A stretch of DNA of 64,000 nucleotides, taken from NCBI GenBank assembly GCA_016201405.1, contig JACQCZ010000014.1, positions 106,631 to 170,630 of the forward strand, in the 5' to 3' direction. Under the pieces are notes generated by a model, which was given only the letters and a program-made list of their open reading frames with translations, ran no database searches and was not told the origin of the DNA. Made by a program: the position numbers and the translations under genes. Of the stretch, positions 19,994 through 32,047 are shown one piece after another. Numbering within the stretch: the stretch's first letter is position 1; each line of letters begins with the position of its first letter. Origin of the DNA: Candidatus Acetothermia bacterium (GTDB taxonomy: Bacteria; Bipolaricaulota; Bipolaricaulia; RBG-16-55-9).

Positions 19994-20030
19994 CTTTCAA
20001 CCAACATCGCGGGCGCGAGCGGAGGCATTG

Positions 20031-21905
20031 ATGAGGGGGGCATTATTTCGCTGGATTCTGAGAGTTCTATTCTCTCTTCTTCTGGTCCTCTCCTTCGCTT
20101 ACCAAACTGGGCTTGCAGATGTCAGTCTAGATGTCGAAGTGGGCTTTGGAGGCCAATTCATGTCCGGCCAGTACACTCTCGTCCAGGTCGTCTTGCAATA
20201 TCAGGGCCCGCCTCTCACGGGAGAGCTGGCACTTCACCAAGAGTACAAATCTCCGCTCGAGAGCGAGAAGTCCTTTTCTGAGCGGCGCACGGTGCGCCTG
20301 GGCTCAAATGTCAACCAGCTCTATCAATTCTATTTCCCCGTCTCCCGCTCTCCCTGGCCCAATGAGGATCAGCCCGCTCTCTCCATCACGCTCTCATCCA
20401 ATGGGAGCGTGGTATTTTCGAAGCGCGTTCCCCTCGCCGGCGACGTTGAGCCACAGCCGCTCGTGCTCGGAGTGAGTGAGACCAACTTTCCCCGCATGCT
20501 CACGACAGGAGAGCGGATAGAGAGCGTGGGACTCAATCAGCTGCCGGAGGACTGGCGAGGATATGACGGAGTGAGAAGAATCTATCTGGGCCGCGCGAGA
20601 ACCGACCAGCTCACCAAGCGCCAACAAGACGCGATCCAGCAGTGGATCACACGGGGCGGAGAATTCGTGGTGCTCGGCGGTGAGAATTTCTACTTGCAGG
20701 ATTCTTCGTGGCTGCGCCAGATCATTCCGTTTGATGTCTCAGGAATCGAAGCGGCACAGGCCTCGTCCGATCTGCCCACGTATGTTGCAGGCAAGCCTCT
20801 CGGGGAAGTCCTCATTCAGCGGGCTGCGATCCCACTTCTGGTAGAGCAGCGGGTCGTCAATGGCATCATCTTCTTTTCCGTGCTCGACTTATCACAGCAG
20901 ACGGAATTGTCTCAAGCCATCTGGAACGACTTGCGGCAGACCTCTTCTCTGCTCGACAATCAGCCTCCTGATCTGGGCTCAAAGATTTTGGGAAACACCC
21001 AGCTCGCTTATCCATCAAAGCCGCTCCTTGGCGCTCTGTTGATTCTTTATCTAATAGGCTTTGCCTATATCAGCCTTTGGATGCTGCGGCAGCCCCTCAA
21101 CACCTTGCTCTCCTCTCCCGAGGGCGGTGAGATGCGCAGAAAGAGGCAGGGCTGGAAGGTGCTCGCCTTTGTTGTCGGCTGGATGCTCATCTTTGCAGTC
21201 CCGAGCCTTGCCTATCTGGGCCAGCCCAGATTTCACAGTTATTTTCAGTCTCTTGAGGTCGGGTTGATCAGAGCCCAGGAGGGATCGTCCTGGGGCTGGA
21301 GCCAGAGCTGGTACAGTGTCATCTCCAAGAAGGAGCGCAGCCTCTCGCTGGCAGCCAGCGACAACTCTCTCATCCTGCCCCTGGGGCAGACGCAGCTGGA
21401 ACTGCTGCAAGAACGCCCCGATGCGTGGGATTTGGACTTTTCACCCAACCCTATGAAAAGCTGGTCCACAGAGAACCTCTATACCGAAGAGATGGTGCCG
21501 CTTGACATCGGCGTACGCGCGGACAAAGAGGGTGGAGATGTCAGAGGCTCTCGGATTCAGGTCTATAATGGCAGCCAATGGAACCTGCGGGATGCCGTGC
21601 TCTTTCGCAACGGAGTCTATTATCCCATCGGAGAGGTCCCAGCCGGAAAGTCGCTCACCGCTGAGCTTAGCGGTCTGGGACTCAATGAGTGGTCACCATG
21701 GAGTGGCTTCAAAGACCTCTGGAGCATCGAGGAGCGGGTGAAGAATGTCATCATGAATCAGCTCGGGATTACGGATGAATTGAAGAGGGATCGCAGCCAA
21801 TGGGTCTTGCTCGGCTGGGCCGAAGTTCGCGCGCTGACTCAGGCTTACCGCGAAAATCGTCAGGGACTTTCACTCATTCTCATTCGCTCCAAGGAGCAAG
21901 AGTAG
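20031..21905 (+). CDS. hypothetical exported/membrane protein, first gene of the MoxR-VWA operon
   Basis: About 624 aa; N-terminal signal peptide, two central TM helices, no recognised catalytic motif. The ORF formally starts at TTG 20028. Confidence 0.5.
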   Translation: MRGALFRWILRVLFSLLLVLSFAYQTGLADVSLDVEVGFGGQFMSGQYTLVQVVLQYQGPPLTGELALHQEYKSPLESEKSFSERRTVRLGSNVNQLYQFYFPVSRSPWPNEDQPALSITLSSNGSVVFSKRVPLAGDVEPQPLVLGVSETNFPRMLTTGERIESVGLNQLPEDWRGYDGVRRIYLGRARTDQLTKRQQDAIQQWITRGGEFVVLGGENFYLQDSSWLRQIIPFDVSGIEAAQASSDLPTYVAGKPLGEVLIQRAAIPLLVEQRVVNGIIFFSVLDLSQQTELSQAIWNDLRQTSSLLDNQPPDLGSKILGNTQLAYPSKPLLGALLILYLIGFAYISLWMLRQPLNTLLSSPEGGEMRRKRQGWKVLAFVVGWMLIFAVPSLAYLGQPRFHSYFQSLEVGLIRAQEGSSWGWSQSWYSVISKKERSLSLAASDNSLILPLGQTQLELLQERPDAWDLDFSPNPMKSWSTENLYTEEMVPLDIGVRADKEGGDVRGSRIQVYNGSQWNLRDAVLFRNGVYYPIGEVPAGKSLTAELSGLGLNEWSPWSGFKDLWSIEERVKNVIMNQLGITDELKRDRSQWVLLGWAEVRALTQAYRENRQGLSLILIRSKEQE

Positions 21906-21907
21906 CG

Positions 21908-22666
21908 GTGTCCGCGCAAGAGCGCGCATCAGTAGCCAATCCCAAGAGCACTGCCCCGAAAATCCCTTGGCTGGGAACCGATTGGGACTACTGGTTCGAC
22001 CGCGAGACGTGGTCATCCCTGATGGCGTTTCTTCTGCTGTCGGGAGGCATCTTGCTCGTTGCCTTGCCGAACACAACCGAAGTCGGCAGGCTCACTCCCA
22101 AATCCATGGAAGCGACTGATCTCTTCTCGGCCCTCTATTCAATCTTATTTGGGATTCTGGCGATCACGCTTGGACAGGCCGAGTTGTCTTGGGGACATCG
22201 GCTCAGCAGCCAGGAGCATTTTGTTCATCTATTTAGCCGTCTGGTGGTGCCGCTGGTGCTCAGTCTGCCCTACTGGATTCTTTATATCTTCGCCAATATC
22301 ATGAGCCCACTTTTAATTATTGTACTCCTTGTGCATTTTATTTTATATGGTTATGTGCTCGGGCTTTGCGGCTGGCGGCTATCGCTGATGGGGCAGTCCG
22401 AGATCTTCCAATTCAACATCAAATATCTGAGCTACTTTGGGCTGGTCGCGATTACCTTCTTTGCTGCGCCGCTCCAGTTCATCAATCCCATCTTGGCGAT
22501 CACGGAGATTTTGGGGGAGAATGGCATGGCTCCCGCACTCAATCTGTTGGGCTTCTATACCGCATGGCTGGCGCTGGGTGCGGTCATAGCGTACTTGATC
22601 TTGCACAAACTGAATACGGAGAATCGAGAAATGGAGGAGTATGAAAACGAACTATCTCGTCGTTGA
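21908..22666 (+). CDS. hypothetical polytopic membrane protein
   Basis: About 253 aa with about 6 predicted TM helices; GTG start immediately after the upstream stop (the ORF track begins at 21800, overlapping the previous gene). Confidence 0.45.
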   Translation: MSAQERASVANPKSTAPKIPWLGTDWDYWFDRETWSSLMAFLLLSGGILLVALPNTTEVGRLTPKSMEATDLFSALYSILFGILAITLGQAELSWGHRLSSQEHFVHLFSRLVVPLVLSLPYWILYIFANIMSPLLIIVLLVHFILYGYVLGLCGWRLSLMGQSEIFQFNIKYLSYFGLVAITFFAAPLQFINPILAITEILGENGMAPALNLLGFYTAWLALGAVIAYLILHKLNTENREMEEYENELSRR

Positions 22667-24380
22667 GCAAGAGGTGATTGAGGCGCGGCGGCGGTTGAAT
22701 CGCCTTCAGGGTGTGCGGCTGGGGTTGACTCTCTCAGCCTCGCTGACGCTCGTCTATCTCATTCTCTTCTTCTTTGGCTGGGTACAGTTGATTCAGCCCT
22801 GGCCGATTCTCATTCTCTTTAACGCCATCTGCGGCGGACTCGGCATGATGTGGGGAGATCGGCGTCCAACGCGCCTCCAGCACGACCTGCTCCGTGTCGA
22901 CCGCGCGCTAGGGCTTGGCGAGAAGCTCACGACGATCTTTGAGCTTCGCCGGGGTGAGCGCTCATCCGACATCTTGGAAGCCCTCTATCGCCGGATTGAC
23001 CAGAGCCACGTCGATCCCAAAGAAGTCTTCAAGCTCCCCCGCACGGAGCAGAATGGCTGGTATGCGCTCGGCGGGATCACTGCCGGCATCTTGCTGATGA
23101 TCGGGCTTTGGGGGAATGGCCTCAGTCTCCTCCATATTGAGCAATGGCTCCAAGGTCTGCCGATAAATGAGCTTTCCAGTCAACAGACTCTCCTGGGTAA
23201 AGATGCACTGGATGGCTCACAAAGCGTTTTAGGGAAGGGCCAGAATCAATCGAATGCCAAAGATAAGAAGAGTGATGACGCAGCCTGTGAAAAGCAAGAC
23301 TCTTCTTCAACAGCCCTGAGCAGCGATGCAAATTGCGTCAATGGCAGAGATCAGAATTCACCTACAGATTCGCAAAATCAGACGGCGAAGAATCAAAATG
23401 GCCAGAATATGCCGCCAAACTTTCCACAGAGTCTGTCCGATTTGCTGCAACAGCTCCAGCAGGGGAATATCTCACAAGATGAAGTGCAAAAAGATCTGAG
23501 CAGCCTCGCCAATCAGCTTCCGCCAGGCCTGTTGCAAGATATGCTAAAAGACGCAGCAAAGAGCATGGATCCTGCTGACCTTGCGAAGCGGCTGGCCGAT
23601 GCCCTCAAGGAAGCACAACGTCAGGATGAGAACCAGAAGAAGCGGGCTCAATCCAATGACAAAAATGACAACCAGCCCTCTCCTCAAGGGGGCCCAGGCT
23701 CCAAAGGCCAGGGGATCCCGGGTATGGCCTCTGGAGACCAATTGGCAAATCAGAATCAAAACAACTCGAATAAATCAGGCACAGAAGCCCCGAACAGCGG
23801 GAGCTCTTCCTCACAATCCGGTGAGAACCCAGATCAGCCCAAAGGTGGGGATCAGTCAAACCAGTCTGGGCAGGCCGGGGGCAAGCAGGGCAGCAGTGAC
23901 TCCCTCTCCCAGAATGGCAAGAGCAAAAATGACTCACCCGACAAGAAAGATGAAAACGGGAAGAGCTCTGATGGCTCCGGCACGAACGACGGATCCAATA
24001 ACAGCGGAAGTAGTAGCGGCTCCCCTGAAAGCTCATCGGATGACGAGGGCTCTGGTGGCAAAGACTCATCGGGTGGCAATGGAGCCGGTGACACCGCTGG
24101 AAATGGCAAGGATGGGAAGAAGGATCAGTCTTTGACCATGGATAAGAGCCTGCTCATCCACGGCGCCAGTCTTCCGCAGGATGCTGAGCAGCTCAAGCGG
24201 TTAATTACGCTTGGATTGCCCGTGGATTTGCAAGGCACTCAAGCCGATGGGACACCCACGCTCAAGCTCAATATCGAGCGTGTCGAGTCGCTGCTCCAGC
24301 TCCGCGAGCTTCCCCCCAATCTGAGAGCGCTGGTCCGGGCCTATTTCTTGGCTATCGCCGGAGAAAAATCGTCCAAATAA
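22641..24380 (+). CDS. hypothetical membrane protein with a roughly 300-aa Q/N/S/D/G/K-rich disordered region
   Basis: 579 aa; N-terminal TM helices, third TM near residue 150, long low-complexity polar segment, conserved-looking C-terminal 80 aa. Start overlaps upstream stop by 26 nt. Confidence 0.5.
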   Translation: MKTNYLVVEQEVIEARRRLNRLQGVRLGLTLSASLTLVYLILFFFGWVQLIQPWPILILFNAICGGLGMMWGDRRPTRLQHDLLRVDRALGLGEKLTTIFELRRGERSSDILEALYRRIDQSHVDPKEVFKLPRTEQNGWYALGGITAGILLMIGLWGNGLSLLHIEQWLQGLPINELSSQQTLLGKDALDGSQSVLGKGQNQSNAKDKKSDDAACEKQDSSSTALSSDANCVNGRDQNSPTDSQNQTAKNQNGQNMPPNFPQSLSDLLQQLQQGNISQDEVQKDLSSLANQLPPGLLQDMLKDAAKSMDPADLAKRLADALKEAQRQDENQKKRAQSNDKNDNQPSPQGGPGSKGQGIPGMASGDQLANQNQNNSNKSGTEAPNSGSSSSQSGENPDQPKGGDQSNQSGQAGGKQGSSDSLSQNGKSKNDSPDKKDENGKSSDGSGTNDGSNNSGSSSGSPESSSDDEGSGGKDSSGGNGAGDTAGNGKDGKKDQSLTMDKSLLIHGASLPQDAEQLKRLITLGLPVDLQGTQADGTPTLKLNIERVESLLQLRELPPNLRALVRAYFLAIAGEKSSK

Positions 24381-24402
24381 ATCTCATTCAACGAGGGATA
24401 TC

Positions 24403-25389
24403 ATGACCATCGAGATGCAACTGGCAAAAACAGAAGAGGTCTTCCAGAAGCTGACGCGTGACATTCAGAAAGTTATTGTCGGCCACCAGGAGACTATCCG
24501 GGGGACGCTGATCTGCCTGCTCTGTGGCGGGCATGCTCTTCTCGAAGGCGTACCCGGGCTCGGCAAGACCCTCACCGTAAAGACGCTGGGTAAATTATTG
24601 GGGCTCTCTTTCTCCAGAATTCAGTTTACGCCCGATCTCATGCCCGCAGACATTTTGGGAACCAATATCATTGTGGAAGAGGGAGGCCGGAGGGCCTTTG
24701 AGTTTTCAAAGGGCCCCATCTTTGCCCATATTGTGCTGGCGGACGAGATAAACCGCGCCACCCCCAAGACGCAATCTGCGCTCCTCGAAGCGATGCAGGA
24801 GCGCGGGGTCACCATCTCCGGCAAAACTTATGTACTGGACGAGCCATTTATCGTTCTGGCCACGCAGAACCCCATCGAGATGGAAGGCACATATCCTCTG
24901 CCTGAGGCACAAGTAGACCGCTTCTTCTTCAAGATTGTCCTCGATCAGCCGACGCAAGAAGAGCTGGACGAGATTCTCAAGCGCCACATGACATCACCGG
25001 AAGTGAAGCACATCGCCGGAAGCGCCATCTCGCGCGAGACTCTAGTCGACGCAAAGAAGCTGATGGCTCAGATCCCTATTGCGGAGCCGTTGCGCCATTA
25101 CATCGTGCGGCTGGTCAATGCCACGCATCCCAAGCGGGATGAGGCAGCTCCGCTGGTCAAAGAATACGTCGAATATGGAGCGAGCCCGCGCGCTGGCATC
25201 GCCCTTCTCTGGGGCGCAAAGGCCAATGCATTCTTAGATGGCCAATTGAACGTTCGCATCGAAGATATTCAGCGCGTCTTTGTGCCTGCATTCCGGCACC
25301 GAATCATCCGCAACTTCCGGGGCGAGGCGGAGGGCATCGCCGTCGATGAGATCTTAAAACAAGTGATCGAGAAGACTCCCGAGGTATAG
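24403..25389 (+). CDS. MoxR family AAA+ ATPase
   Basis: 328 aa; Walker A GVPGLGKT, Walker B VLADEINR, and the MoxR sensor region. Confidence 0.9.
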   Translation: MTIEMQLAKTEEVFQKLTRDIQKVIVGHQETIRGTLICLLCGGHALLEGVPGLGKTLTVKTLGKLLGLSFSRIQFTPDLMPADILGTNIIVEEGGRRAFEFSKGPIFAHIVLADEINRATPKTQSALLEAMQERGVTISGKTYVLDEPFIVLATQNPIEMEGTYPLPEAQVDRFFFKIVLDQPTQEELDEILKRHMTSPEVKHIAGSAISRETLVDAKKLMAQIPIAEPLRHYIVRLVNATHPKRDEAAPLVKEYVEYGASPRAGIALLWGAKANAFLDGQLNVRIEDIQRVFVPAFRHRIIRNFRGEAEGIAVDEILKQVIEKTPEV

Positions 25390-25395
25390 CGGCAC

Positions 25396-26268
25396 ATGCC
25401 CCTTCTGCTCGATTCAGCCTATCTCAAAAAGCTCGAAAACCTGGGTCTGGTCATTCGGGGGCGCTTTCATGGCTATATGACCGGAAAGCGGCTCACTTCC
25501 CGCTCCGGGATGAGCCTGGAATTTGCTGAATACAAAGAATATTCGCCGGGGGATGATTTTCGCTATGTAGACTGGAATCTCTATGGACGCCTTGGGAAGC
25601 TCTTTGTCAAACGCTTTAACCGCGAAGAGGACGTTCCGATCTATCTCTTTTTGGACATTAGCCATTCGATGGCCATCGGAGAAAAGCTCAATTACGCCGT
25701 TCTGCTGGCGGGCACGCTGGCCTATTTAGGACTGAAAGAATTCAATCGCGTCGGGATCTTTCCGTTTGCCAGCGATCTGGCTCTCGGCGTGCCTCCCAAA
25801 GGGAGCTACAAACAGCTCTTCCAGATCTTCCATTTCTTAGAGAAAGTCGTGCCAGCGGGAGAGACCTCCATCAATGAGTCCCTGACGCGCTTTACGCGCA
25901 TCCGCCGTGAGAGCGGGCTGGCCGTCATTATCAGCGACATGCTCAGCGAGGATGGCTTTGAAGAGGGACTGGCACAGCTCCTCTATCATGGCTATGAGGT
26001 GATCGTCCTTCATCTGTTGGCTCCCGATGATTTGAATCCAGCGTGGAATGGCGAGATTCGCCTCAAAAATATTGAAGACCAGAAGGAGATTACAGTCCAT
26101 GTGGATCGCGCTGCGCTGAACGAGTACCAGACGGCCTTGGATAATTATCGTTCAAGACTGGAAGCATTCTGTCGTGAGCGCGGCATCCGCTATGCCCTGG
26201 TCTCTACGGACAGCCCTCTTGAGAAGACAGTCTTCGAGACCTTGCGGGAAGGGGCGCTGGTTCAATGA
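25396..26268 (+). CDS. DUF58 domain protein (MoxR partner)
   Basis: 290 aa; DUF58 signature YVDWNLYGRLGKLFVKRF and LFLDISHSM; directly downstream of MoxR. Confidence 0.85.
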   Translation: MPLLLDSAYLKKLENLGLVIRGRFHGYMTGKRLTSRSGMSLEFAEYKEYSPGDDFRYVDWNLYGRLGKLFVKRFNREEDVPIYLFLDISHSMAIGEKLNYAVLLAGTLAYLGLKEFNRVGIFPFASDLALGVPPKGSYKQLFQIFHFLEKVVPAGETSINESLTRFTRIRRESGLAVIISDMLSEDGFEEGLAQLLYHGYEVIVLHLLAPDDLNPAWNGEIRLKNIEDQKEITVHVDRAALNEYQTALDNYRSRLEAFCRERGIRYALVSTDSPLEKTVFETLREGALVQ

Positions 26269-28154
26269 CCTTTCTATCGGGCATTGCGCTCTGGCTTCTA
26301 GGCCTTGGTGCGATCATCACATTTATTTATTTCTTAAAGCGCCAGGCGCGGGTGCAGCCCGTCTCGACGCTCTTTCTCTGGCAAAGGATTGAGCAGAGGC
26401 CCCAGAGCGCGCTCCGTTTTCAGTGGACCCAGCTCCTCGGGCTCATCTTGCAGTTACTGGCTCTCACAGCCATTGTGGTGGGGATTGCCCAGCCGGTGAT
26501 CTACTCTGCCAGCGGCGGTGTGGGACGAATGGCCATTCTGCTCGATGGAAGCGCCAGCATGCGAGCGCTCATGCCTTCTGAAAAGATCACACGCTTTGAG
26601 CGGGCCGTACAGCGGGCTCAAGGGTTGCTCGATGAGAATCCGGCTGCCGAGGTGACCTTGGTCGAGGCACAGACGCACAGCGCAATCCTTGTACCGCCTA
26701 CCCATGATCATTCCTTCATTCGCAAGGCTCTGAGCGACGCCAGGCCGACGTATCAGGGGAATGCTGACTCGGGCGAGCTGCTCAGCCTTCTTCAAAGTCA
26801 GAGCAGCACAGGCTATGACCAAGTTGTCCTGATCAGCGATCAAGCTGCCAAGCCGCAGCAGCAGCAATTGGGGATTGATGTTGAGTCCGTCTTGGGAGAT
26901 GAATCTTCTGAAAATATTGCCCTTACGGACTTTTCTGTGCGTGAGCAGCCCAATGGCAAGGGGTATGACTTCTATCTCCAAGCCTGGAACTCATCGAGTG
27001 ATGCAGTAAACGTTCCGCTGGATATAGAAGCCGATGGGAAATCCGTCCAGTCGGATGTGATCACCATCCCCGCGCATGGCTCTCTCTCACGAACTTTCTC
27101 ATCGTCGCTTCGCTATGCGGATGAGTTTCGAGCCAAGATCGATACCACGGCTCTTCCCGACGACTGGAGCGATGATGACGTACGCTATGCGACATCTCCA
27201 CAGCCACCCCCCTGGAAGATTTTATGGGTAGGCAAGATCAATTTTTATCTAGAGAGCTTTTTGCAGAATTCAGGAGAGGTTGACCTGACCGAGAAGGCGA
27301 CCCTGGATGAAGCGGGAGATCTCAACCGCTATGACGTGGTCCTGCTCAATCAAGTCGATCTTTCGGATGCTCAGGCTGGCGCGGGTCATTATCTGGCATT
27401 TGGCGGCTCTTTTGGAAGCTATATCCTCTCCAAAAGCATTCATGATCTGACGAGTGGCGCGGTGGATGTCCAGAAAGATGACCCACTCTTGCAAGGGATG
27501 GACCCGACCGCTTGGCGACTGCTCCACATTCCGGACGCGGCCGTCGATCCCAAGGGAGAGGTCTTATTATCTTCCGAGAGTCTTCCGTTTCTTTATATTT
27601 ATGAGAAGCCGGGTCTGCGGCTTTCGTATATCGGAGCCGATTTGGAGGCTTCCAATCTTGTATTGTCGATTGATTTTCCAATACTGATCTATCGTCTGCT
27701 CTCTTGGCTTTCTCCCCGCTCTGGGGAGAGCACAACGCTGACGGCTGGAGACGAGCTTCCGCTATCATCATTAGAAAATATAAAGAGCATTGTCGATCCG
27801 CAAGGCAAGACCTGTCAATACAATTCTTCCGCAAGCCAGTGCGGCAGCTTGGGCGAGATCGGTTTCTATCAGGCCACGCGAGCCGATGGAGAGGCCGTGA
27901 CTTTCGCCGCCAATGCGGATCCAACAGAGTCTATTTGGGAGGATGCTTCGGATGCGGCTGCAACTGCAGTGACTCCGACGAGCTCACAGCAGGCAGGGTC
28001 ACTGGGCGACACGCCGCAAGCGTTAAAAGCGGCGATCCCTGTATGGCCCTATTTGCTGGCGATTGGATTGATCTTATTACTGGCTGAGCTCTTCACATTT
28101 CACCGTCCAACGGCAATTCCATGGCTGCCCTCCCTGGGGAGGAAGAGGGCATGA
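26265..28154 (+). CDS. BatA-like membrane protein with VWA domain
   Basis: 629 aa; N-terminal BatA-type TM region, MIDAS-like DGSAS motif, C-terminal TM helix. Start overlaps upstream stop. Confidence 0.7.
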   Translation: MTFLSGIALWLLGLGAIITFIYFLKRQARVQPVSTLFLWQRIEQRPQSALRFQWTQLLGLILQLLALTAIVVGIAQPVIYSASGGVGRMAILLDGSASMRALMPSEKITRFERAVQRAQGLLDENPAAEVTLVEAQTHSAILVPPTHDHSFIRKALSDARPTYQGNADSGELLSLLQSQSSTGYDQVVLISDQAAKPQQQQLGIDVESVLGDESSENIALTDFSVREQPNGKGYDFYLQAWNSSSDAVNVPLDIEADGKSVQSDVITIPAHGSLSRTFSSSLRYADEFRAKIDTTALPDDWSDDDVRYATSPQPPPWKILWVGKINFYLESFLQNSGEVDLTEKATLDEAGDLNRYDVVLLNQVDLSDAQAGAGHYLAFGGSFGSYILSKSIHDLTSGAVDVQKDDPLLQGMDPTAWRLLHIPDAAVDPKGEVLLSSESLPFLYIYEKPGLRLSYIGADLEASNLVLSIDFPILIYRLLSWLSPRSGESTTLTAGDELPLSSLENIKSIVDPQGKTCQYNSSASQCGSLGEIGFYQATRADGEAVTFAANADPTESIWEDASDAAATAVTPTSSQQAGSLGDTPQALKAAIPVWPYLLAIGLILLLAELFTFHRPTAIPWLPSLGRKRA

Positions 28155-30721
28155 TTCGGTTCAGCCAGCTCTGGCCGCTTCTCTTACTGCTTATCCCTAT
28201 CGGACTGCTCCTCTGGCAGTGGGAGGCGCTGAAGCGCTTTACCCTCGGCGACCGCATTTCGTTTGGGGCGCGGCTCGGAGTTGTGGCGCTTGGCATCCTC
28301 GCACTCTCAGGACCGCAATTGTTGAGCTGGACGGAATCGCACTACGTCTATTTTCTGGCAGATCTTTCCAAAAGCGTGAGCCCTCAAGACCGGGGTCAGC
28401 TGCTCTCGGAGCTTCGCGCACTCGCCAAGCCGCAAGAGTACACTCAATACGGCCTGATCGTCTTTGGGGTCAAGCCGTATGTCGAAGCTCCATTCAGCCC
28501 AATGTTAAATTTGAACGAGGTCTTGACGAATGTCGATAGTGAAGGAACAGATTTGCAGGCCGCACTGGAGCTGGCCATGTCAACCTTCCCCCGTGATGGC
28601 AAGAAGACGATTGTGCTTCTTTCCGATGGCCAGCCAAGCCAGGGAGAGACGACAGAGGCGCTGGCCCGCGCCAAACGGGAAGGGGTAGAGATCTTCACTT
28701 TGCCGATGGACCCGCCAGCCTCTGAGTTTTCAATCCAGACGATCCAGGCTCCACAAGAGGTCGCAGTCCAGCTCCCCTTCTCATTCCAGAGCGTCGTCTA
28801 TGCCTCACGATCCAGCACCGGAAAGCTGCTCACATACCGCAATGAGACACTGATTGACACAAAAGATGTCGCTCTGCGTCCTGGGCTCAATTACTTTTCG
28901 TATAGCGACAAAGTGAATGACCCCGGCAGCTATGAGTACCGAGCCGAGCTTGTTGTCGCTGGCGATGCGCTCCCTCAGAACAATCATTATCGCGCATTGG
29001 TCGATGCGATCGGCGATCCGCGCATTCTTCTGGTAGAGAACAATTCTTCAGAGCAAGAATCGGTGATGGGAAAGCTGTTAAAAAACTCTGGCTATGCCTT
29101 CTCCAAAGTGAGCCTGAATGAGCTGGCGCCGACAGCCAGCTCCCTGCTCTCATACCGAGCTGTGATTATGAACGAAGTGCCGCTCAAAGATCTCACGGCA
29201 CGGCAGACCGAATTTCTAGAAAATTATGTGCGCGATCTCGGCGGAGGGCTCTTCCTCGTCCAGGGCAGGCAGTCCGTCGAAGAGTTTTATGACCGCCAGT
29301 TTGAGCAGATGCTGCCCATCACCTATGAAGGTCCGCAAGAGATCCAGCGCCCCGCGCTCGCTTTGGTGATGCTGCTCGACCGCTCCGGCAGCATGGGCGA
29401 GATCGCCGGCGGTGATACCAAGGGCAGCTATATGAAGATCGATCTCTTAAAACAGGCAGCACGAGAGGCCGTCTCCAAGCTCGATGACAACAGCCTTGTC
29501 GGCATCATCGGCTTTGACTCGACCTACGACTGGCTGGTAGACATTGGCCCCGTGAAAGGTCGGAAAGATGAGATTTTAGCTGCAGTTGATAAGCTCTATG
29601 CCAATGGCGGGACAGACATCTATCAGCCTCTCAAAGATGCCGTCGCCCAGTTGCAGAAGCTGACCGCGCGCGTCAAGCACATTCTGGTCTTCTCCGATGG
29701 AAAAGTATCCCAGCAGGGGCGCGATTTCGATCAAATCTTCCAGGAGATTGCCGGCAGCACGATCAGCGCCTCATCCATTGCCATCGGAGCACAAGCCGAT
29801 TTTGACTTCATGTGGAAGCTGGCGGATGCGGGGAGCGGCGCCAAATATCCAGTGGCCGATGCGCGGGATCTGCCACGAATCACGCTGGAAGAGATGGTGC
29901 GGCTGGAACGCGCCCGCTGGGTCAAAGGGCCATTGGGTGTCGAGGCCGGACCCTTTGCAAATCAGCTGACTGGAATTGACCCCAGCACCATCCCCAATGT
30001 CGATGGCTATGTTCTGACGTTTGAGAAGCCAACGGCGCAGACGCAGCTTCAGGTCCGTGCTGACAAAGATCATGCAGACCCTCTGGTGAGTCAGTGGCAC
30101 TATGGTCTGGGCAAGGTCTTTGTGCTCAACACCAGCTTTGAAGGCGAAGGCCTGGAGCGCTGGAAGTCCTGGAGCGGACTGGGCGAGCTGAGCTCTGAGA
30201 TTCTGAGCCAGGTCTACAGCGAGAGCACCATCAAGCCCAAAGAGCTAGCCGTCTGGACAGATTCTTCTAACTCAACGCTGAGCGTCCATGTTGAAGCGGA
30301 CCGCGACGGCAAATGGCTGGATCAATTGGTAATGAATGGGCAACTCAACACACCGGATGGCAAGTCAATTCCTCTCGACTTGGAACAGACGGGACCAGGG
30401 ACCTATCAGGCCACCGTAAAAGATCTGAGCGAAGGCGTCTATCTGCTCAATTTGGGTGAAGATTCACTCGGTCAAGTCCAAGAGGCTGTCCAGATTCCCT
30501 ATGCAGCGGAGTACAAAAAGATTGGGCTGAATGAGCCACTTTTGCAACAGATCGCAGAAGTGACTGGAGGAGAATATCTTGAGAATCCAGATCGCTTGCA
30601 AGGCCTGTTGCAGGGCCGGACACTGATCTACCGGGATATCTGGCAGGAGATTTTATTGGCAGCCCTCTTCTTCTTTCTGGCCGATCTGGCTCTGAGAAAA
30701 GTGCCTTTTCTGCACGCTTAA
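28151..30721 (+). CDS. BatB-like membrane protein with two VWA domains
   Basis: About 856 aa from ATG 28151 (ATGA overlap); N-terminal TM, two MIDAS-like motifs (DLSKS and DRSGS), C-terminal TM anchor. Confidence 0.7.
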   Translation: MIRFSQLWPLLLLLIPIGLLLWQWEALKRFTLGDRISFGARLGVVALGILALSGPQLLSWTESHYVYFLADLSKSVSPQDRGQLLSELRALAKPQEYTQYGLIVFGVKPYVEAPFSPMLNLNEVLTNVDSEGTDLQAALELAMSTFPRDGKKTIVLLSDGQPSQGETTEALARAKREGVEIFTLPMDPPASEFSIQTIQAPQEVAVQLPFSFQSVVYASRSSTGKLLTYRNETLIDTKDVALRPGLNYFSYSDKVNDPGSYEYRAELVVAGDALPQNNHYRALVDAIGDPRILLVENNSSEQESVMGKLLKNSGYAFSKVSLNELAPTASSLLSYRAVIMNEVPLKDLTARQTEFLENYVRDLGGGLFLVQGRQSVEEFYDRQFEQMLPITYEGPQEIQRPALALVMLLDRSGSMGEIAGGDTKGSYMKIDLLKQAAREAVSKLDDNSLVGIIGFDSTYDWLVDIGPVKGRKDEILAAVDKLYANGGTDIYQPLKDAVAQLQKLTARVKHILVFSDGKVSQQGRDFDQIFQEIAGSTISASSIAIGAQADFDFMWKLADAGSGAKYPVADARDLPRITLEEMVRLERARWVKGPLGVEAGPFANQLTGIDPSTIPNVDGYVLTFEKPTAQTQLQVRADKDHADPLVSQWHYGLGKVFVLNTSFEGEGLERWKSWSGLGELSSEILSQVYSESTIKPKELAVWTDSSNSTLSVHVEADRDGKWLDQLVMNGQLNTPDGKSIPLDLEQTGPGTYQATVKDLSEGVYLLNLGEDSLGQVQEAVQIPYAAEYKKIGLNEPLLQQIAEVTGGEYLENPDRLQGLLQGRTLIYRDIWQEILLAALFFFLADLALRKVPFLHA

Positions 30722-31299
30722 TCAGGCTCAATGATCTTCGCGCTGGGCCGCTCTCTCCCCAATTCGCGCCGCAGCTCGGGGCCAATCTTCTGACCAAAGA
30801 CAACGACCATCTTTTCACTATGAAGGGGCTTCTCGAGCTGGTGCAGCTGATGAAGCAACTGACTTGTCCTTTCGGCAGTCGAAGGGATTTCCGCTAATAT
30901 AATGTTGTATTCATCTCCAACGACGAAGGCAACGGCATTATCCAGGGGGACTTCGGCTAGCTCGATATCGGGCAACTCGCCTGCAACTCTGTGATGGAAT
31001 GCATTGCCCCAGTCTATAAACGGCGTGCGCCAAGGCTCTCCGGAAAGATCGCTCATCAGGAGCTCCCTGATTGTCTTATCGGGCTGTAAAGCATAGCGCA
31101 GTGCGCTGGCCGGGCTCTTCAATCTGGAAAAGAGCATATAGAGCGCAAGAGCTCCGACGACAATCGCTATTCCCCCTACCAAAGAGCCCTCACTCAACGG
31201 CTCCGAAGTAAGCAGCAGATAGATGCCAAAGAGCGGCGTAATCAAGTACGTCACCATGCGGATGAGAAAGCGCTTGCGCGATCCAAATTCAGGTCGCAT
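30718..31299 (-). CDS. hypothetical membrane protein
   Basis: Two N-terminal TM helices and a cytoplasmic domain; start uncertain (the ORF extends to 31338 and overlaps the rhomboid gene). Confidence 0.4.
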   Translation of the reverse strand: MRPEFGSRKRFLIRMVTYLITPLFGIYLLLTSEPLSEGSLVGGIAIVVGALALYMLFSRLKSPASALRYALQPDKTIRELLMSDLSGEPWRTPFIDWGNAFHHRVAGELPDIELAEVPLDNAVAFVVGDEYNIILAEIPSTAERTSQLLHQLHQLEKPLHSEKMVVVFGQKIGPELRRELGRERPSAKIIEPD

Positions 31300-31303
31300 A
31301 GAG

Positions 31304-32047
31304 TCAAACAGGGCTGGGTGGGCTTGGCCTTTTTGCAAAGAAGCGCACGAAGAGCAAGCCTGTTATGAAGCCGCCAATGTGAGCCATATAGGCAATACCA
31401 CCCCCCTGAATTGCACCACCTCCAAGCAGAGAGCTAATCACTTGCAGCAAGAACCAGAAGCCCAAGACAATCATCGCTGGCATCTCGATCAACTGCACGA
31501 TGACAAAGAGGAAGAGAATTGTGAGAACGCGGGCAAAGGGATACAGGAGCAGGTATGCACCCAAGACCCCGGCAATCGCTCCGCTTGCCCCCACCATCGG
31601 GCTCACACTATGGGTGTTCGTCAGAATCTGCGCAATCGCTGCCACTAAGCCAGCCATGAAGTAGAAGAGTGCAAAGCGCACTTTGCCCATGGCATCTTCT
31701 ACATTGTCGCCAAAGATCCATAGAAACCACATATTACTCGCAATGTGCAGAATGTCTCCGTGCAAAAACATGGATGAAAAAAGCTTCATCCAGACTGGAA
31801 AATCTGTGACAGAAAAGAGGGGACAGTTGGACAGAATCTCACAGGGCGTCAGTCCGTATTTGTAGATAAAGTAGTCGTAGTGTGAGATCACGCCGACTTC
31901 GCCGCCAATTTGCACGCGAACTTTGGAGGGATTCTGCCCCATAACCAGCGCCTGATAGAGAAAGACAATCACGTTGATGGCAATAATGAGTACCGTGACC
32001 CAGGGAAAGGACTGGCTACGTCTATAATCCCGCAATGGGAAGAGCAA
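31304..32047 (-). CDS. rhomboid family intramembrane serine protease
   Basis: 247 aa; catalytic Ser in GASGAIAGVLGAY and His in AHIGGF; 6-7 TM helices. Confidence 0.85.
   Translation of the reverse strand: MLFPLRDYRRSQSFPWVTVLIIAINVIVFLYQALVMGQNPSKVRVQIGGEVGVISHYDYFIYKYGLTPCEILSNCPLFSVTDFPVWMKLFSSMFLHGDILHIASNMWFLWIFGDNVEDAMGKVRFALFYFMAGLVAAIAQILTNTHSVSPMVGASGAIAGVLGAYLLLYPFARVLTILFLFVIVQLIEMPAMIVLGFWFLLQVISSLLGGGAIQGGGIAYMAHIGGFITGLLFVRFFAKRPSPPSPV

Follow-up and report, generated by a model that had tools for sequence, protein, structure and literature searches.

Domain anatomy and predicted topology of A629 and B856, two long BatA/BatB-like VWA membrane proteins encoded behind MoxR and DUF58 in a Candidatus Acetothermia bacterium

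We describe here two adjacent genes in a 64,000-nt stretch of contig JACQCZ010000014.1 (assembly GCA_016201405.1, positions 106,631 to 170,630) from a Candidatus Acetothermia bacterium, hereafter the window. They encode membrane proteins of 629 and 856 amino acids (A629 and B856), which carry VWA domains with MIDAS motifs (metal ion-dependent adhesion sites) and follow the genes of a MoxR-family AAA+ ATPase and a DUF58 protein. With a probability of about 0.62, we consider that both belong to a Bat/Cmd-type MIDAS scaffold located outside the cytoplasm and involved in envelope maintenance under the control of cytoplasmic MoxR and DUF58. A629 and B856 are ordinary members of a widespread family already annotated at the domain level. 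What is new here is the map of their individual segments, the nesting of one VWA domain inside another domain, the fusions between the two genes and the argument on topology.

A629 (26265-28154) and B856 (28151-30721) are the last two genes of a run of seven on the plus strand (~20031-30721), to which all features below belong unless indicated otherwise. The run is tightly packed except for a 22-nt gap 5′ of the MoxR gene. MoxR and DUF58 genes are separated by 6 nt and the subsequent junctions are ATGA overlaps: the DUF58 stop and the A629 start share ATGA at 26265-26268, and the A629 stop overlaps the B856 start in the same manner. The two genes and their coupling to DUF58 and to each other are thus as described in the original prediction. 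The alternative B856 start at 28121, called by the open reading frame (ORF) lister, was rejected in favor of the ATG at 28151 because of the ATGA overlap and the spacing of a GGAGG located 8 nt 5′ of this ATG, and because the resulting length agrees with that of the identical NCBI entry and of almost every homologue. Entries with 100% identity to both proteins (856 aa for B856) exist at NCBI from a Candidatus Acetothermia (Bipolaricaulota) genome, under the names ‘BatA domain-containing protein’ for A629 and ‘VWA domain-containing protein’ for B856.

Family alignments comprised 48 homologues for A629 and 90 for B856, and confident AlphaFold2 (AF2) models were built on these alignments, with a mean predicted local distance difference test score (pLDDT) of 84.3 and 89.6, respectively. 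Searches of the PDB with either single sequence gave no match and family profiles were required. The N-terminus of A629 (residues 1-77, 26265-26495) is a BatA_N helical hairpin matched by Pfam BatA (PF07584) with 42.1 bits (cut-off 25.9, E = 1.2e-10). It is composed of two transmembrane (TM) helices, 3-21 and 57-75, and a conserved basic loop including V33, S34 and W39. A VWA of the Bat type follows (~86-208, 26520-26888), recognized by VWA_2 at residues 89-192 (41.1 bits, cut-off 27) and, with the family profile, by BatB structure 3ibs (3.5e-12) and by 4jdu (9.4e-12). Then come an all-beta sandwich (~218-292, 26916-27140), whose AF2 strands at 218-292 have pLDDT above 90 and which aligns with a sandwich in B856, and a divergent GATase1-like domain of the PF07090, STM3548 type (~306-560, 27180-27944). 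The latter was identified by Foldseek, the best PDB matches of the AF2 model being the PF07090 GATase1-like structures 2gk3 and 3soz, and by hhalign against the B856 GATase1-like profile (93.9%); it is a strongly degenerate copy. Finally, hydrophobicity (589-607), the AF2 model and charge analysis place a C-terminal TM helix at ~589-612 (28029-28100), followed by a basic tail.

B856 follows the same general plan with several additions. Its first 60 residues (28151-28330) form a two-helix hairpin with a basic loop in which R41 is near-invariant, as judged by hydrophobicity, the AF2 model and charge. However, Pfam BatA found no match in B856 even at E ≤ 10. The BatA-type N-terminal region expected in both proteins is therefore supported by the hidden Markov model (HMM) for A629, while that of B856 is BatA-like only by its topology and its paralogy to A629. 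The hairpin is followed by a Bat-type VWA with a complete MIDAS (VWA1, ~62-190, 28334-28720; profile 61-189 against 3ibs, 4.4e-15, and 4jdu, 3.8e-14), a beta-sandwich (~193-287, 28727-29011, AF2 strands 193-287) which ends in invariant columns D272...N277, and the N-terminal half of a GATase1-like domain (~288-399, 29012-29347) with the motif YVRDLGGGL and without the nucleophile Cys. The second VWA (VWA2, ~400-588, 29348-29914; Pfam VWA 405-575, E = 1.2e-24) is inserted in a loop of this domain. Its C-terminal half resumes at ~589-695 (29915-30235; profile matches to 3soz 172-246 and 2gk3 171-255), with conserved PPxxGY, WRYGLG and W671/W674. Beyond lies an immunoglobulin (Ig)-like beta-sandwich of filamin/FixH-like type, then a small alpha/beta unit (~699-829, 30245-30637, AF2 strands 699-782). 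The Filamin and FixH matches of the Ig-like domain are weak (E ~0.01-0.03), and one homologue (P0112) reaches 8.2e-5 with Filamin. A C-terminal TM helix (~830-852, 30638-30706) and an R-K tail terminate the protein. The hydrophobic helices of A629 and those of B856 (4-27, 36-60 and 830-852) are the same in the AF2 models, so that each protein has the anticipated C-terminal helix.

In Pfam searches B856 reached 87.9 bits with VWA and 87.5 bits with VWA_2, VWA_3 matching as well, on two stretches of which 405-575 is the best. VWA1 and the single VWA of A629 are closest, among solved structures, to Bacteroides BatB (3ibs) and to an aerotolerance-related membrane protein from B. fragilis (4jdu) (E of 1e-12 to 1e-15 with family profiles), which bears out their description as BatA/BatB-like. 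VWA2 is different, its profile resembling classical VWAs such as those of ArnB, CLCA, ITIH and collagen VI.

The three DxSxS motifs that had been pointed out are all present: DGSAS at residue 94 of A629, DLSKS at residue 71 and DRSGS at residue 410 of B856. Each lies inside a VWA domain scoring above the Pfam gathering threshold, VWA1 of B856 being backed in addition by its profile match to 3ibs, so that three VWA folds are supported. As to the claim of three MIDAS sites, both B856 sites are complete and (near-)invariant among the 90 homologues. The VWA1 site is made up of D71, S73 and S75, of T133, where 90/90 homologues have T or S, and of D159, and that of VWA2 of D410, S412, S414, T488 (89/90) and D516. 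For A629, in contrast, D94, S96, S98 and D192 are conserved but the Thr position is occupied by Ala167 (Ala in 33 and Thr in only 5 of the 48 homologues), and this replacement makes the site incomplete or atypical. B856 has a further, fourth DxSxS at residue 704 (DSSNS), which was considered as a MIDAS but rejected: it belongs to the Ig-like domain, shows no conservation and is put down to chance.

The nesting of VWA2 was addressed by cutting residues 400-588 from 33 family members, which were then re-aligned. With the uncut B856 profile the two halves of the GATase1-like domain match apart, residues 292-399 to 3rht 6-116 and residues 595-681 to 2gk3 171-255. After excision, the profile runs through the junction as a single uninterrupted domain in its matches to 3soz (E = 1e-24), 2gk3 (1.3e-22) and 3rht (8.7e-19). 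The GATase1-like domain thus carries VWA2 as a loop insertion. The segments between VWA domains, which had been left unassigned, can thus be attributed to beta-sandwich, GATase1-like and, in B856, Ig-like domains. What had been regarded in B856 as an inter-VWA segment is not a linker but the domain which hosts VWA2.

PF07090 was matched by neither single sequence in a Pfam scan at E ≤ 10, phmmer of the VWA2-excised B856 chimera against the PDB returned noise only, and the single B856 sequence minus VWA2 gave a weak ThuA match (E = 0.009). In distant B856 homologues, PF07090 is matched directly after VWA2 and solely by the C-terminal portion of its model (positions 150-245); before VWA2 these homologues match DUF7408, and a further stretch of PF07090 is reported there without coordinates. 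At the nucleophile-elbow position B856 has DLGGGL. Since, moreover, the protein is devoid of Cys, its GATase1-like domain is not a glutamine amidotransferase. A629 has only two Cys, 517 and 526, both in the GATase1-like domain and away from the nucleophile elbow. The GATase1-like domains of both proteins are thus predicted to be non-catalytic. The known PF07090 proteins (STM3548 2gk3, STM1381 3soz and Planctomyces 3rht) are stand-alone, soluble, of ~250 aa and without VWA insertion, in contrast to the membrane-anchored domains of A629 and B856. No member of PF07090 has a known function or a demonstrated activity (PMC13432705).

Besides the MIDAS and the GATase1-like motifs, the most conserved feature is an acidic/Asn motif at the end of the sandwich, invariant in both families: D272...N277-N278 in B856 (window ~28964-28984) and D299...D304 in A629 (~27159-27176). 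It may be a metal or interface site. Residues 52-365 of A629 align to 29-343 of B856, from TM2 through VWA and sandwich to the start of the GATase1-like domain (hhalign 99.9%, E = 5e-32). As judged by this alignment, the two proteins are paralogues with a shared order of hairpin, VWA, sandwich and GATase1-like domain.

Furthermore, among the B856 homologues listed, 27 have a length of ~1,420-1,476 aa; they come from Rokubacteria, NC10 and Methylomirabilales. The four examined by BLASTP are all colinear with A629 and then B856. Fused A-B genes also adjoin MoxR/DUF58 on replicons of Deinococcus aetherius and Ketogulonicigenium robustum. Fusions of this kind speak for joint action of both proteins in a single complex. 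In one Rokubacteria locus (L001, 4097-13319) the fused gene encodes 1,458 aa and is followed by a tetratricopeptide repeat (TPR) gene of BatC/BatE type, and an unassigned ORF of 491 aa stands between MoxR and DUF58.

On which side of the membrane the domains reside was examined from the charge distribution. In both families the TM1-TM2 loops and C-terminal tails are rich in K/R, with net charges of +3.3 to +5.7 (the A629 hairpin loop averaging +5.7); the segments that flank the large domains are instead neutral or acidic. The positive-inside rule thus puts loop and tail in the cytoplasm and the VWA, GATase1-like and Ig-like domains on the outside. We strongly infer this orientation, in which most likely only the basic loops and short C-terminal tails of A629 and B856 face the cytoplasm, and the charge pattern holds family-wide. 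The Cys content, none in B856 and a pair in A629 co-conserved in 30/48 homologues, is consistent with outward-facing domains.

The reversed orientation would place the VWA and GATase1-like domains in the cytoplasm as direct cofactors or substrates of MoxR, as in RavA-ViaA, CbbQ-CbbO and NorQ-NorD. There they would bring in a target, located in the cytoplasm or the membrane, for metal insertion or remodelling. This orientation appears unlikely. Only the loop-in, tail-in arrangement satisfies the positive-inside rule throughout the families, and ectodomains that are Cys-free or contain a single co-conserved Cys pair, as well as the presence of an Ig-like domain, also argue against it. Moreover, a VWA-like protein without TM helix, DUF58, already fills the role of cytoplasmic adaptor. 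The Borrelia burgdorferi homologue BB0173 points in the same direction: experiments showed that it resides in the inner membrane and that its topology fits a VWA in the periplasm (PMC5700661). BB0173 is comparable to A629 and B856 in that it combines a BatA domain, a VWA and three TM helices and is encoded beside MoxR; it is however much shorter and carries a single VWA, and no GATase1-like domain is described in the source (PMC5700661).

In a 36%-identical relative (L006, 447-1600), the cassette, whose first gene is X, is directly preceded by genes for a DsbA-like protein (Thioredoxin_4/DSBA) and for VKOR. Such neighbors are compatible with disulfide formation in outward-facing domains, in this single case.

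The two genes preceding A629 encode MoxR and its putative adaptor. MoxR (24403-25389, 328 aa) is of the MRP type, with 208.8 bits for Pfam AAA_3 and a match to AAA_lid_2; its Walker A (GVPGLGKT) and Walker B (LADE) motifs are both intact, as read from the sequence. The DUF58 protein (25396-26268, 290 aa) has a VWA-like core (Pfam DUF58 112.4 bits, VWA_2 27.8 bits) and its own DISHS motif at residue 87, and a hydrophobicity search revealed no hydrophobic segment that could be a TM helix. Known MoxR ATPases work with a VWA cofactor which recruits the target via its MIDAS (PMC3893208). As a TM-less VWA-like protein encoded beside MoxR, DUF58 is the natural candidate for such a cofactor and is predicted to be the cytoplasmic partner of MoxR.

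We propose the following arrangement. Each of the two proteins would be held in the cytoplasmic membrane by its N-terminal hairpin and C-terminal helix and would expose between these anchors a Bat-type VWA, a beta-sandwich and a non-catalytic GATase1-like domain, to which B856 adds the nested VWA2 and the Ig-like domain. A629 and B856 probably form one complex, possibly joined by the product of gene X with its own, third GATase1-like domain. Acidic residues of envelope or periplasmic partners would be held by three Mg2+/MIDAS sites, two of them complete and one incomplete. On the inner side MoxR, with DUF58 as VWA-like adaptor, may assemble or remodel the complex by way of the cytoplasmic loops and tails. 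The physiological output would most likely be envelope integrity or stress tolerance, as in related operons.

Envelope, morphology or stress phenotypes are known for the R. leguminosarum cmd, Riemerella bat and Francisella operons (PMC5700661, PMC3893208, PMC11834572). In particular, mutants of the R. leguminosarum cmd operon show defects in envelope integrity and morphology, as cited in PMC5700661, PMC3893208 and bioRxiv 10.1101/551135. The cmdA-cmdD operon (RL3499-RL3502) is likewise an operon with MRP-type MoxR. By analogy, its envelope and morphology phenotype would be the most plausible functional counterpart of the present cassette.

A629 and B856 share with Bacteroides BatA/BatB (3ibs, 4jdu) the upstream MoxR and DUF58 genes, the N-terminal hairpin, a BatB-like VWA, the C-terminal TM helix and the arrangement as adjacent paralogues. 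Canonical BatA and BatB, of ~330 aa, consist of hairpin, VWA and TM only. The observation that the present segments exceed the canonical Bat size therefore holds: a beta-sandwich and a GATase1-like domain are added in each protein, and B856 contains in addition the nested VWA2 and the Ig-like domain. Unlike the Bacteroides bat operon, the cassette is devoid of BatC/BatE (TPR) and BatD, for which no family match was found in the nine ORFs scanned (20028-32047), and the unrelated membrane genes X, Y and Z precede MoxR. RavA-ViaA, CbbQ-CbbO, NorQ-NorD and BchI-BchD also associate an AAA+ MoxR protein with MIDAS VWA proteins and VWA-mediated target recruitment. However, the VWA partner in pairs of the RavA-ViaA type is a protein of the cytoplasm in direct contact with the ATPase; here DUF58 fits this description, while the VWAs of A629 and B856 are predicted to be across the membrane.

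Several observations weigh against an envelope scaffold under MoxR-DUF58 control. With its VWAs outside, cytoplasmic MoxR and DUF58 cannot touch them directly and the coupling step becomes speculative. A conserved acidic residue in the loop, considered as a ligand for the DUF58 MIDAS, was rejected since its conservation is too weak (E43 in 32/48 A629 homologues, D34/E in 47/90 B856 homologues). A629 scores 17.5 on TIGR02226, under the cut-off of 23.05. Solved PF07090 proteins were deposited as ‘cytoplasmic protein’ or ‘putative cytoplasmic protein’. At the functional level, Leptospira mutants deleted for batA or batABD showed no phenotype (PMC3557215), and the literature on bat operons in aerotolerance and oxidative stress is inconsistent. 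Finally, the strongest conservation apart from the MIDAS is found in the GATase1-like domain of B856 (DLGGGL, E385, WRYGLG, W671 and W674), and could point, instead of to a passive scaffold, to an unrecognized site of catalysis or glycan binding.

This last point leads to a different assignment of roles, in which the GATase1-like domains would be the functional core, acting as enzyme or glycan-binding module on an envelope polymer (peptidoglycan, exopolysaccharide or S-layer glycan), and the VWAs would serve to position them. The most invariant residues outside the MIDAS are indeed located there (D362, G364-366, E385, P389, W649, G652, G654, W671 and W674), the domain occurs in three proteins of the cassette and its fold is common with ThuA, as the match after VWA2 excision suggests. 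Nevertheless, classical glutamine amidotransferase chemistry is excluded by the elbow sequence and by the absence of Cys from B856, the A629 copy is degenerate and PF07090 offers no precedent for activity. We regard such a catalytic or glycan-binding core as improbable.

More ambitious, and a rather long shot, is a machine operating ‘inside-out’ by analogy with integrins. MoxR and DUF58 would pull on the basic loops and C-terminal tails and thereby switch the conformation of the nested VWA/MIDAS domains on the outside, and with it their ligand affinity, the GATase1-like domains of X, A629 and B856 forming a hetero-oligomeric platform. In integrins, the beta-propeller harbors the alpha-I domain, and the hybrid domain harbors the beta-I domain. 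As in these proteins, a MIDAS VWA is here nested in a host domain of a membrane-anchored ectodomain, and integrin VWAs are found among the structural matches. The host domain is however different (GATase1-like here), and the resemblance is an analogy only, with no sign of common descent of the insertion or of conformational signalling. If true, such a machine would represent a new energy-dependent control of the cell envelope and would provide a mechanism for Bat/Cmd operons.

Outward-facing VWA/MIDAS and Ig-like domains might alternatively make A629 and B856 surface adhesins for cells, minerals or matrix, the link to MoxR being incidental or restricted to biogenesis. The nearest solved relatives of VWA2 include VWAs of adhesins (Mfa5, PilB minor pilin, LapA, RrgA and PTMP1) and the Ig-like domain comes after VWA2. 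Yet both ends of the proteins are anchored in the cytoplasmic membrane and there is no stalk, sortase or secretion signal. Furthermore, the MoxR-DUF58-A-B order shows tight conservation from phylum to phylum, also in diderms, where the surface would be out of reach. A role as adhesins is thus very unlikely. Least probable of all, and hardly to be retained, is a threat-sensing or conflict system akin to the MoxR-vWA-beta-propeller ternary systems, with sensing ectodomains and transducing MoxR/DUF58: although MoxR scores 34.2 bits on the bpMoxR model and MoxR-vWA modules transduce cell-surface signals in Actinobacteria (preprint 10.64898/2026.09.08.750141), AAA_3 is by far the better match, the cassette contains no beta-propeller, kinase, FHA or effector domain (Pfam, NCBIfam), PADLOC defence models matched none of its proteins and the operon looks like a conserved housekeeping locus and not a variable island.

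The Bat/Cmd-type scaffold remains our preferred reading. Operons of the MoxR-DUF58-VWA (Bat/Cmd) type are among the most widespread bacterial gene clusters without a mechanism, and the present locus adds no new type of system. It provides a cleaner anatomy of the ‘long’ branch of the family, with repeated VWA, beta-sandwich and GATase1-like module. The gain in annotation is small, as both proteins were already correctly named at the domain level. However, MIDAS sites facing away from the ATPase would sharpen the question of how a cytoplasmic AAA+ protein reaches extracytoplasmic VWAs.

The distribution of this branch was assessed using the C-terminal module of B856 without VWA (residues 589-856) as query against 1.84 billion clusters at 50% identity. 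The module was detected in 3,160 representatives at E ≤ 1e-3 and in 1,183 at E ≤ 1e-10, most of them being 830-1,060 aa long with the module at the same position. A pattern scan with one genome per species yielded 309 confirmed loci, the best 80 of which belong to Bipolaricaulota, Fraserbacteria, Chloroflexota, Myxococcota, Acidobacteriota, Verrucomicrobiota, Planctomycetota and others. For synteny, proteins of the window were compared by tblastn to 86 loci, not all of which are long enough: MoxR was found in 54, DUF58 in 61 and an A629-like gene in 69. The order MoxR, DUF58, A629-like and B856-like is kept at constant spacing in most loci of sufficient length. Cultured organisms that carry this core of four genes include Lujinxingia vulgaris, Deinococcus aetherius and Ketogulonicigenium robustum. 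In a different locus (L005, 6663-11838, from a metagenome-assembled genome labelled Pleurocapsa minor), A-like and B-like genes have no adjacent MoxR/DUF58 and a 128-aa ORF lies between them.

X, Y and Z precede MoxR in Bipolaricaulota and Fraserbacteria and partly elsewhere, and none of the three matches a Pfam or NCBIfam model. Gene X (20031-21905), hypothetical and first of the conserved seven-gene cassette, encodes 624 aa with an N-terminal hydrophobic segment, a GATase1-like domain at ~142-302 (motif WITRGGEFVVLGGENF), two TM helices in the middle and a conserved C-terminal domain of no recognized fold. The GATase1-like domain, third of the cassette, matches the B856 profile with hhalign (97.1%, E = 7.5e-11). 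A word-indexed homologue search with X gave 4 proteins only and its relatives were taken from synteny: X is upstream of MoxR in 18 of the 86 loci, including Deltaproteobacteria, Verrucomicrobiia and Binatia. Gene Y (21908-22666) encodes a polytopic membrane protein of ~252 aa of no known family, as judged by hydrophobicity and homologues. Its start is probably the GTG at 21908, supported by AAGGAG at 21891-21896 and by the homologues, and not 21800 as called by the ORF lister; its sequence is conserved only in Bipolaricaulota, Fraserbacteria and L006. Gene Z (22641-24380, 579 aa), also of no known family, has an N-terminal TM region, then ~300 aa of low complexity in which Q, N, S, G, D and K abound, and finally, at the C-terminus, a conserved stretch of ~60 aa (…LPPNLRALVRAYFLAIAG). 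Just the two ends are conserved among relatives.

No RNA feature was found in the cassette, nor any tRNA gene or Rfam family at the gathering threshold across the whole window. Promoter and terminator scans gave signals at or under the shuffle expectation and are therefore uninformative on operon boundaries. Downstream, a convergent ORF of 206 aa without Pfam match (30718-31338, minus strand) overlaps the B856 stop with its own by 4 nt. A homologue with 34% identity occupies the same position in a related locus (L002), and this ORF may be linked to the cassette. It is itself overlapped and directly preceded by a gene for a rhomboid-family intramembrane serine protease (31304-32047, minus strand; PF01694, E = 1e-34).

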